DNA of 64,000 nt from Eledone cirrhosa (taxonomy: Eukaryota): positions 183,210,001 to 183,274,000 of the forward strand of contig OZ024741.1 in NCBI GenBank assembly GCA_964016885.1, written 5' to 3'. The notes beneath the pieces were generated by a model. It was given only the letters and a program-made list of their open reading frames with translations. It ran no database searches and was not told the origin of the DNA. The translations under genes were made by a program, and so were the position numbers. Below, one piece after another: positions 32,844-33,128 of the stretch (position 1 is the stretch's first letter; each line of letters starts with the position of its first letter).

Positions 32844-32958
32844 CTTACTGGTTCCTATTACCCACTCTACTACCTCAAGTATTGAGTACTTTGGTGCGTT
32901 ATGGTCCACCTGGTTCCTTACCACATTTCCTTCGTTATATATATATATATATATATAT

Positions 32959-33122
32959 ATAACGAAGGAAATGTGGTAAGGAACCAGGTGGACCATAACG
33001 CACCAAAGTACTCAATACTTAGGGTAGTAAAGTGGGTAATAGGAACGAGTAGGACCCCGACGGCTGAGCTCAAGCCGTTTCGACGGCTAATTCTGGACTT
33101 AGCCGTCGGGGTCCTACTCGTT

Positions 33123-33128
<6 letters not shown>
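32959..33128 (-). mobile_element. Miniature second insertion of a sister Naiad subfamily with a short inverted tail
   Basis: 32961-33099 matches 30619-30757 with about six substitutions; 33102-33128 is an inverted copy of its own interior; (TA)n on both sides. Confidence 0.85.

Follow-up and report, generated by a model that had tools for sequence, protein, structure and literature searches.

Insertions of a Penelope-like element (PLE) in the genome of Eledone cirrhosa end at two fixed points, 20 and 100 nt downstream of the predicted cut of a hammerhead ribozyme, and the two points are paired, one on each side of the insertion. It is probable that the element protein nicks the (TA)n target on both strands and that each strand primes cDNA at its own fixed site on the same RNA. 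The window is a stretch of 64,000 nt from contig OZ024741.1, and the counts are from this animal genome of 3.0 Gb. All positions given with a plus or minus sign are counted from the predicted hammerhead cut. Comparisons with published systems refer to the available parts of the cited papers. The features of the window that are needed below are as follows.

27127..27158, no strand: (TA)16 target run, the left flank of the large insertion
27156..28278, minus strand: 3' pseudo-LTR (pLTR) of the large element, with its +20 outer end at 27156 and a hammerhead predicted to cut between 27176 and 27175
28373..30727, minus strand: open frame, 784 aa from stop to stop (first ATG at 30526, 717 aa)
30617..30696, minus strand: 80-nt 'tail' (+21 to +100) at its native place, continuing into the open frame
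30697..31819, minus strand: 5' direct pLTR (-1103 to +20), with a hammerhead at 30713-30804 and the predicted cut between 30717 and 30716
31819, no strand: head-to-head junction of the large insertion, long arm to -1103, inverted arm from -1002, one base common to both
31819..32938, plus strand: inverted pLTR arm with tail, outer end +100 (32938)
32751..32842, plus strand: type I hammerhead with U3-A8 core, long helix II and palindromic loop 3, predicted cut after 32838
32793..32809, plus strand: zone -46 to -30, the inner (5') end of most arms and a candidate RNA 5' end
32856..32858, plus strand: the +20 site (TAT), read through in the inverted arm of the large element
32880-32882 and 32900-32902, plus strand: two unused TAT triplets at +44 and +64, internal controls
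32936..32961, no strand: (TA)13 run common to the large and the mini insertion
32959..33099, minus strand: long arm of the mini insertion, -41 to +100
33100..33127, plus strand: short arm of the mini insertion, ending at +20
33125..33160, no strand: (TA)18 run, the right flank of the mini insertion

The interval 27156-32938 is one Penelope-like insertion, composed of a 3' pLTR, a minus-strand ORF, and a 5' direct pLTR to which an inverted pLTR is attached at 31819. The 3' pLTR and the 5' direct pLTR differ by one indel in 1,022 nt, and the inverted arm differs from the direct copy by two substitutions and a longer T run. The left end of this insertion is at +20 and its right end at +100, while the mini insertion of 169 bp (32959-33127) ends at +100 on the left and at +20 on the right. 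Two starts are possible for the short arm of the mini insertion: -7 with one additional base, or -31 if 22 nt between two AGCCGTCG repeats were skipped. An earlier note on this DNA had named four ends, and all of them are present: the TTCCTAT end of the large element is at 27156 on the minus strand, its TTCGTTAT end is at 32938 on the plus strand, and the mini insertion has the TTCGTTAT end at 32959 (minus strand) and the TTCCTAT end at 33127. The positions 27157 and 33128 given for the two TTCCTAT ends were each off by one. The sites, placed by the note at about 20 and 100 nt past the ribozyme cut, lie at exactly +20 and +100, 80 nt apart. Positions -4, +7 and +12 are C/C/C in both arms of the mini insertion versus T/T/G in the large element, and both combinations are common subfamily types in the genome. 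Because of these different bases, the large and the mini insertion are separate events, and the claim of two independent insertions with the same pair of end points is borne out.

The element is assigned, on the basis of its sequence, to the EN+ Penelope-like retrotransposons of the Hydra type. It has a single ORF for a reverse transcriptase (RT) plus an endonuclease of the GIY-YIG type at the C-terminus, pLTRs in partial tandem with an inverted copy and an optional tail, and a hammerhead motif. The RT (YRDD) and the GIY-YIG-type endonuclease were recognized by motifs read in the translation. Searches of Pfam and PDB with the ORF gave no match, and the assignment of the two domains therefore rests on the motifs and on the homologues, of which there are 674, with PF00078 on one among those listed. 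Compared with the motif list in PMC8557442, the Hydra-clade motifs RWR, DKT, CNCx5C, CxxC..E, and N..CxH are all seen in the ORF, as RWR, DKT, CNCPDRSIC, CNLCSEE, and NKKDELVTACKH. The Hydra clade as described there likewise has a C-terminal EN, RWK-like and DKT motifs, a CxCX5C linker, and CxxC and CxH around the E and N residues; its members, molluscan ones included, have (TA)n targets and a hammerhead. The monomer here is 3.5 kb, whereas those described are mostly shorter than 3 kb, and the hammerhead core here is U3-A8, with the clade assigned by motifs (PMC8557442). The (TA)n preference was also found: ATAT follows 114 of 121 ends at +20 and 142 of 145 ends at +100 in a sample partly chosen on TA-bearing ends, and the sample blind to ends gives 88 of 100. 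The family is young, the ORF is intact, and more than 20,000 ends are left in the genome. Tandem monomers elsewhere in the genome have periods of 3,528-3,544 bp, and head-to-tail arrays of at least three to four near-identical 3.53-kb monomers are located at C1:91.47-91.49 Mb, C1:437.20-437.21 Mb, and C2:320.55 Mb. These arrays may be source loci of the family, and they fit templates of tandem or circular form.

Several other features were recognized in the window. Decayed PLE fragments with the CNC..C linker lie at 39327-40446, with a weak GIY-YIG match, and at 50255-50695. A U2 snRNA gene or young pseudogene (143 bits) occupies 50921-51113 on the minus strand. Two long open frames of 423 and 1,166 aa on the plus strand (40993-46305) look, by eye, like an intact L1/Tx1-type non-LTR element with an endonuclease and an RT.

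Each pLTR of the large element carries a type I hammerhead. The unconstrained minimum-free-energy fold of -92 to +8 is a type I hammerhead of -23.2 kcal/mol, the same with or without a hammerhead constraint. The U3-A8 core variant has been described for some PLE hammerheads (PMC4209133). In Rfam, no hammerhead was seen among the 150 of 165 matches listed. The miRNA-like Rfam matches over 32877-33020 were rejected, as they arise from the palindrome around (TA)n. A further hammerhead-like core (CTGATGAG ... GAAAC) is present at 24400-24455 of the window, just left of a (TA)n run, and belongs to neither of the two PLE families studied here.

Across the whole genome, pattern counts of exact ends running into (TA)n gave 22,740 at +100 and 15,802 at +20; the two patterns are unequal in length, both counts are lower bounds, and reversed-pattern controls gave 0. 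Only 313 read-throughs past +100 were counted, and the hammerhead core has 38,585 matches. Thus, as proposed in the earlier note, the ends that merge into (TA)n concentrate, to a degree well above chance, at two dominant points and are not scattered. The first 100 core matches on C1, picked without regard to ends, agree with the pattern counts: 88 have exact ends, 48 at +20 and 40 at +100; seven more end at these motifs, following a small deletion inside the arm or next to a flank other than TA; three end elsewhere, one is a read-through, and one is interrupted.

The same note had regarded UAU as what defines the sites, and this part did not hold. The two other TAT triplets of the 80-nt tail, at +44 and +64, account for 30 and 15 genomic ends, about 1,000-fold fewer than the two sites on either side of them, and a TAT matching the target is therefore insufficient to make a site. 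The long end of the second PLE family lacks TAT in the copies read, and an anole element starts reverse transcription without homology in vitro (PMC11167929). The fold of the tail region is no better than that of shuffled sequences (z -0.67 and -0.68), so that no RNA structure accounts for the two sites.

The pairing of the two ends was counted in 95 loci picked by junction, 130 inverted match pairs from C1, and 20 long copies. Among the head-to-head insertions picked by their central junction only, 91 of 95 pair +20 with +100 (48/50, 29/30, and 14/15 in the three sets, with seven pairs of the 50-locus set read by eye through a mutated end). The remaining loci comprise one +100/+100 pair, no +20/+20 pair, and three with another or an unreadable end; about half of the pairs would be expected to have the same end under random assortment, versus the 1 of 95 found. 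The wider C1 sample, partly chosen on one end, contains 99 +20/+100 pairs, 2 same-end pairs, and 29 pairs with an end outside both classes. Most of these 29 are probably older copies, alignments that were split, or inserts of three pieces. Both ends are visible in 15 of 20 long young copies, and all 15 pair +20 with +100, the long arm lying on either site. The junction-picked loci and the long copies alike agree with the earlier prediction of two dominant end points, one per side. Target-site duplications are unreadable since they are hidden by (TA)n; a check for them within (TA)n gave 2/111 informative, against a shuffle mean of 0.15 and a maximum of 2.

A second, unrelated PLE family in the window (24637-26125) shows the same arrangement. 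Two head-to-head arms extend out of (TA)n, and only one side has a tail, which is about 40 nt long. Of 30 loci examined, seven gave a scorable pair, and all 7 were short/long. A GIY-YIG remnant is located at 24881-25432, and a 24-mer from an arm has 1,749 exact matches.

The typical insertion is a head-to-head stub with a median length of 195 bp, in a narrow size range. The two arms usually overlap, copying the same approximately 60 nt twice. Their inner ends are clustered as well: 148 of 198 arms start at -46 to -30, nine reach further upstream than -46, and both arms reach -46 to -30 in 60 of 99 canonical pairs. At the -45/-41 edge lie TCATTT and TTAGTC, which we take to be initiator-like, and transcription may start at this edge. 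It need not do so, since -45 also falls on the apical loop of hammerhead helix II and since the centre of a palindrome can be lost once it has inserted. In a few junctions an untemplated G, possibly derived from a cap, was observed at -45/-41 ends. Two loci, L111 and L174, have junctions near -44 with a 13-14-nt A/T run between the arms, as if poly(A) or a slipped T tract had been copied at the join.

A second cluster of inner ends lies at the ribozyme cut. Junctions with both arms ending near the cut number 457, versus 7 for the control. In 50 of them that were read, 35 of the 100 arm ends are at +1, 11 at -1, and 5 beyond; the -1 ends are mostly perfect palindromes at +1. Both arms start exactly at +1 in 18 of the 50, which scales to about 330 arms in +1/+1 pairs. 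These 18 junctions hold 0 (3 junctions), 1 (6), 3 (6), or 5 (3) extra bases, mostly A/T, as would be expected for run-off with non-templated addition. The peak of inner ends at +1 may be an indirect sign of hammerhead cleavage. About 110-125 junctions mix a +1 arm with a -45 to -30 arm, a number scaled from 18-21 of the 100 matches listed of 598, counted by eye. By these scaled numbers, a +1 arm faces another +1 arm roughly threefold as often as it faces a -40 arm, although -40 arms make up 75% of all arms and +1 arms 2%. The inner ends of the two arms are coupled, far above independence. No A-to-G editing marks common to both arms were seen.

Some insertions are more complex. Three-piece inserts have a middle piece that begins somewhere between about +150 and +320 and extends back as far as about -40 or +1, the pattern expected of a template jump. 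At L123 (C1:27.009 Mb), the stretch from a +20 end to a +100 end holds 2.5 copies of a -44 to +213 unit. A rolling circle is disfavoured there, and one jump followed by a later duplication is indicated, because units 2 and 3 have a derived base in common.

In the C1 sample, the TA runs flanking a stub have a median combined length of 65 nt, versus a length-weighted mean of 37 nt for other TA runs nearby. This excess could result from any one of several causes: loci chosen by their TA-bearing ends, duplication of the target, insertion favouring long runs, slippage, or the addition of repeats. Penelope-like elements are the sister group of telomerase, and a bolder addition to the model would be that this telomerase-related RT lengthens the (TA)n target before copying.

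From the observed end points, one-per-side pairing, (TA)n target, inner-end clusters, extra bases at junctions, and subfamily agreement between arms, the following route is proposed. The element protein would nick both strands of the (TA)n target. The +20 and +100 sites would be RT start sites set by the ribonucleoprotein, with UAU contributing at most a 3-nt pairing to the primer; one strand would prime at +20 and the other at +100. Both cDNAs would run to the 5' end of the RNA, the +100 cDNA displacing or preceding the +20 cDNA. This RNA end would usually be near -45/-41, and in a few percent of cases it would be the end cut by the ribozyme. The transcript start is probably inside hammerhead helix II, in which case that RNA would be unable to cut itself there. 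The two cDNA 3' ends would be joined by an end-to-end jump of the RT or by host end joining, and each cDNA would then serve as the template for the other strand. The same route, with a tandem or circular RNA as the template, may give rise to the long copies that have an inverted pLTR. The 80 nt between +20 and +100 would correspond to the known one-sided 'tail'.

Two inverted arms fit the architecture of opposite-strand priming, from which we infer the priming itself. The idea of the earlier note that both target strands prime and that the cDNAs join head-to-head is therefore kept as the favoured reading, without its L1-style twin priming. Twin priming of the L1 type was rejected because the arms here overlap and both sites are fixed, versus the internal deletion in L1 (PMC2837659).

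That both cDNAs are copied from one and the same RNA is the part of the proposal most exposed to challenge. Each strand could instead be primed on its own RNA, by two ribonucleoproteins or by a dimer with two RNAs, some asymmetry assigning one site to each strand; we judge this unlikely, and several observations speak for it. Five of 69 arm pairs disagree at the subfamily sites; the other 64 agree at +7/+12 (shuffle mean 20.9, maximum 34), a point in favour of one RNA. Private variants common to both arms are almost absent: rare variants occur in both arms in 3 cases versus one arm in 57, and a second count gave 1 versus 122. The mixed +1/-40 junctions, too, are not simply explained by one RNA. 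The agreement in subfamily and the coupling of inner ends could come from two RNAs of one source locus in one cell, and overlapping arms would then need no strand displacement. A palindromic loop 3 fits dimeric hammerheads (PMC4209133), and dual priming has been proposed for L1 (PMC2837659). Against this reading, two equivalent RNAs should give same-end pairs, which were found once among the 95 loci, and the inner ends are coupled far above independence. The anole system offers points for and against the favoured route. For it, the PLE protein nicks and extends both strands in vitro, two internal starts bound the tail, and a dimer was modelled; against it, no difference in start site was seen between the top and the bottom strand, the ribozyme was dispensable in vitro, and no RNA reads ending at the cut were found (Frangieh et al., PMC11167929).

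Two strands primed on one RNA also have to be weighed against a single priming event followed by fold-back, in which the +100-primed cDNA snaps back, or an antisense RNA primes itself (PMC3846280), and the second end is made by endonuclease resolution (PMC8557442). Such a process accounts for the identity of the arms and for palindromic junctions, long copies are compatible with it, and the 3-5 extra bases in 9 of the 18 +1/+1 junctions could form a loop. In the other nine, the arms are separated by only 0-1 nt, which leaves no room for a loop. The arms are independent in length and neither is nested in the other: of the 99 canonical pairs, 42 have the longer 5' reach in the +20 arm, 42 in the +100 arm, and 15 show no difference. 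In 10 of the 99, the +100 arm stops at or beyond +10. These arm lengths disfavour fold-back. In addition, an antisense template is not expected to end at the cut of a sense-strand ribozyme, and the second arm would have to stop at +20 while ignoring +44 and +64. Fold-back is therefore regarded as a rather poor candidate.

In a third explanation, the outer ends are cut points: the endonuclease would trim a longer DNA intermediate at +20 and at +100, and the product would be pasted into (TA)n. The tail has been attributed to endonuclease resolution (PMC8557442), the two sites are alike (TTC..TAT), and cleavage by the D. virilis EN depends on the tail (cited in PMC11167929). Genomic ends in the anole, however, match the RT start sites found in vitro (PMC11167929), and the inner ends at +1 are left unexplained; this explanation is very improbable. 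Finally, a non-autonomous MITE-like or retrozyme-like family copied whole, with the pairing due to descent from one founder, would fit the very high copy number, the narrow size range, and the one junction that recurs three times, and is hardly credible: 49 of 53 young junctions differ, which indicates that each stub was made anew and gives no single shared unit, the pairing holds in at least four subfamily types, in long copies and in the unrelated PLE family, and the founder reading is thus already largely refuted.

The shape of these insertions is known, and the mechanism is read from DNA. In the insertions of EN+ PLEs described in PMC8557442 and PMC3846280, direct pLTRs likewise stand in partial tandem next to an inverted pLTR, only one end has a tail, the junctions are head-to-head and palindromic, and there is a bias to (TA)n. 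The tail is 80 nt here and 30-40 nt there, the copies here are mostly stubs of about 200 bp, and the one-per-side rule is counted here. The inverted-pLTR shape has been explained in these papers by antisense self-priming (PMC3846280) or endonuclease resolution (PMC8557442).

The closest biochemical system is PAc, the Poseidon element of Anolis carolinensis (Frangieh et al. 2024, PMC11167929), which shares two RT starts downstream of the hammerhead that bound the tail, nicking and extension of both strands of AT-rich DNA, and a predicted dimer. In the available parts of that paper, PAc shows no difference between strands and no homology at the start, and inverted pLTRs are not derived from the two starts; here, both sites end in TAT matching the target, one is used per side, and copies stop at the predicted cut. 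Twin or dual priming of L1 (PMC2837659) resembles the proposed route in that a nick of the second strand primes a second cDNA and leads to inversion. The second site of L1 is variable, the arms do not overlap, an internal deletion results, and the process is a side route, whereas the sites here are fixed and internal, the arms overlap, and this is seemingly the main route. The RT of R2 adds up to five extra bases at the template end, makes end-to-end jumps to another RNA or DNA end, and displaces strands (PMC4117753), activities that the one-RNA model needs. They were shown for the R2 RT and not for a PLE RT, and in R2 the second strand copies the cDNA with no inversion. Animal non-LTR retrozymes (bioRxiv 10.64898/2026.07.22.740005) are also short, hammerhead-bearing repeats derived from pLTRs and dependent on PLEs. 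In the available parts of that work they are tandem monomers, whereas the stubs here are head-to-head, include no more than the 3' half of the hammerhead, and differ from copy to copy in their junctions.

Earlier publications already describe the architecture, the one-sided tail, the inverted pLTR, and, for another PLE, two RT start sites. What is new is the strictness of the pairing and the record left in the inner ends. In the open-access literature searched, neither the strict rule of one site per side nor inner ends at the hammerhead cut were found, and the same search gave no two-strand-priming account of PLE inversions.

The origin of inverted pLTRs and of the one-sided tail in PLEs has been stated as open (PMC8557442), and the role of the hammerhead in vivo is unsettled, cleavage being dispensable in vitro (PMC11167929). 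The counts of ends and junctions turn both questions into sharp tests, and a young family with an intact ORF and so many ends is a good substrate for assays. A wider generalization, put forward tentatively and held almost as readily as its denial, is that two-strand priming on one RNA is the normal route of EN+ Penelope elements: a dimer, one cDNA from each end of the tail, run-off, and an end-to-end jump. If this were true, the stubs would map the transcript start, which would lie inside the hammerhead and disable it, and would record hammerhead cleavage in the germ line.
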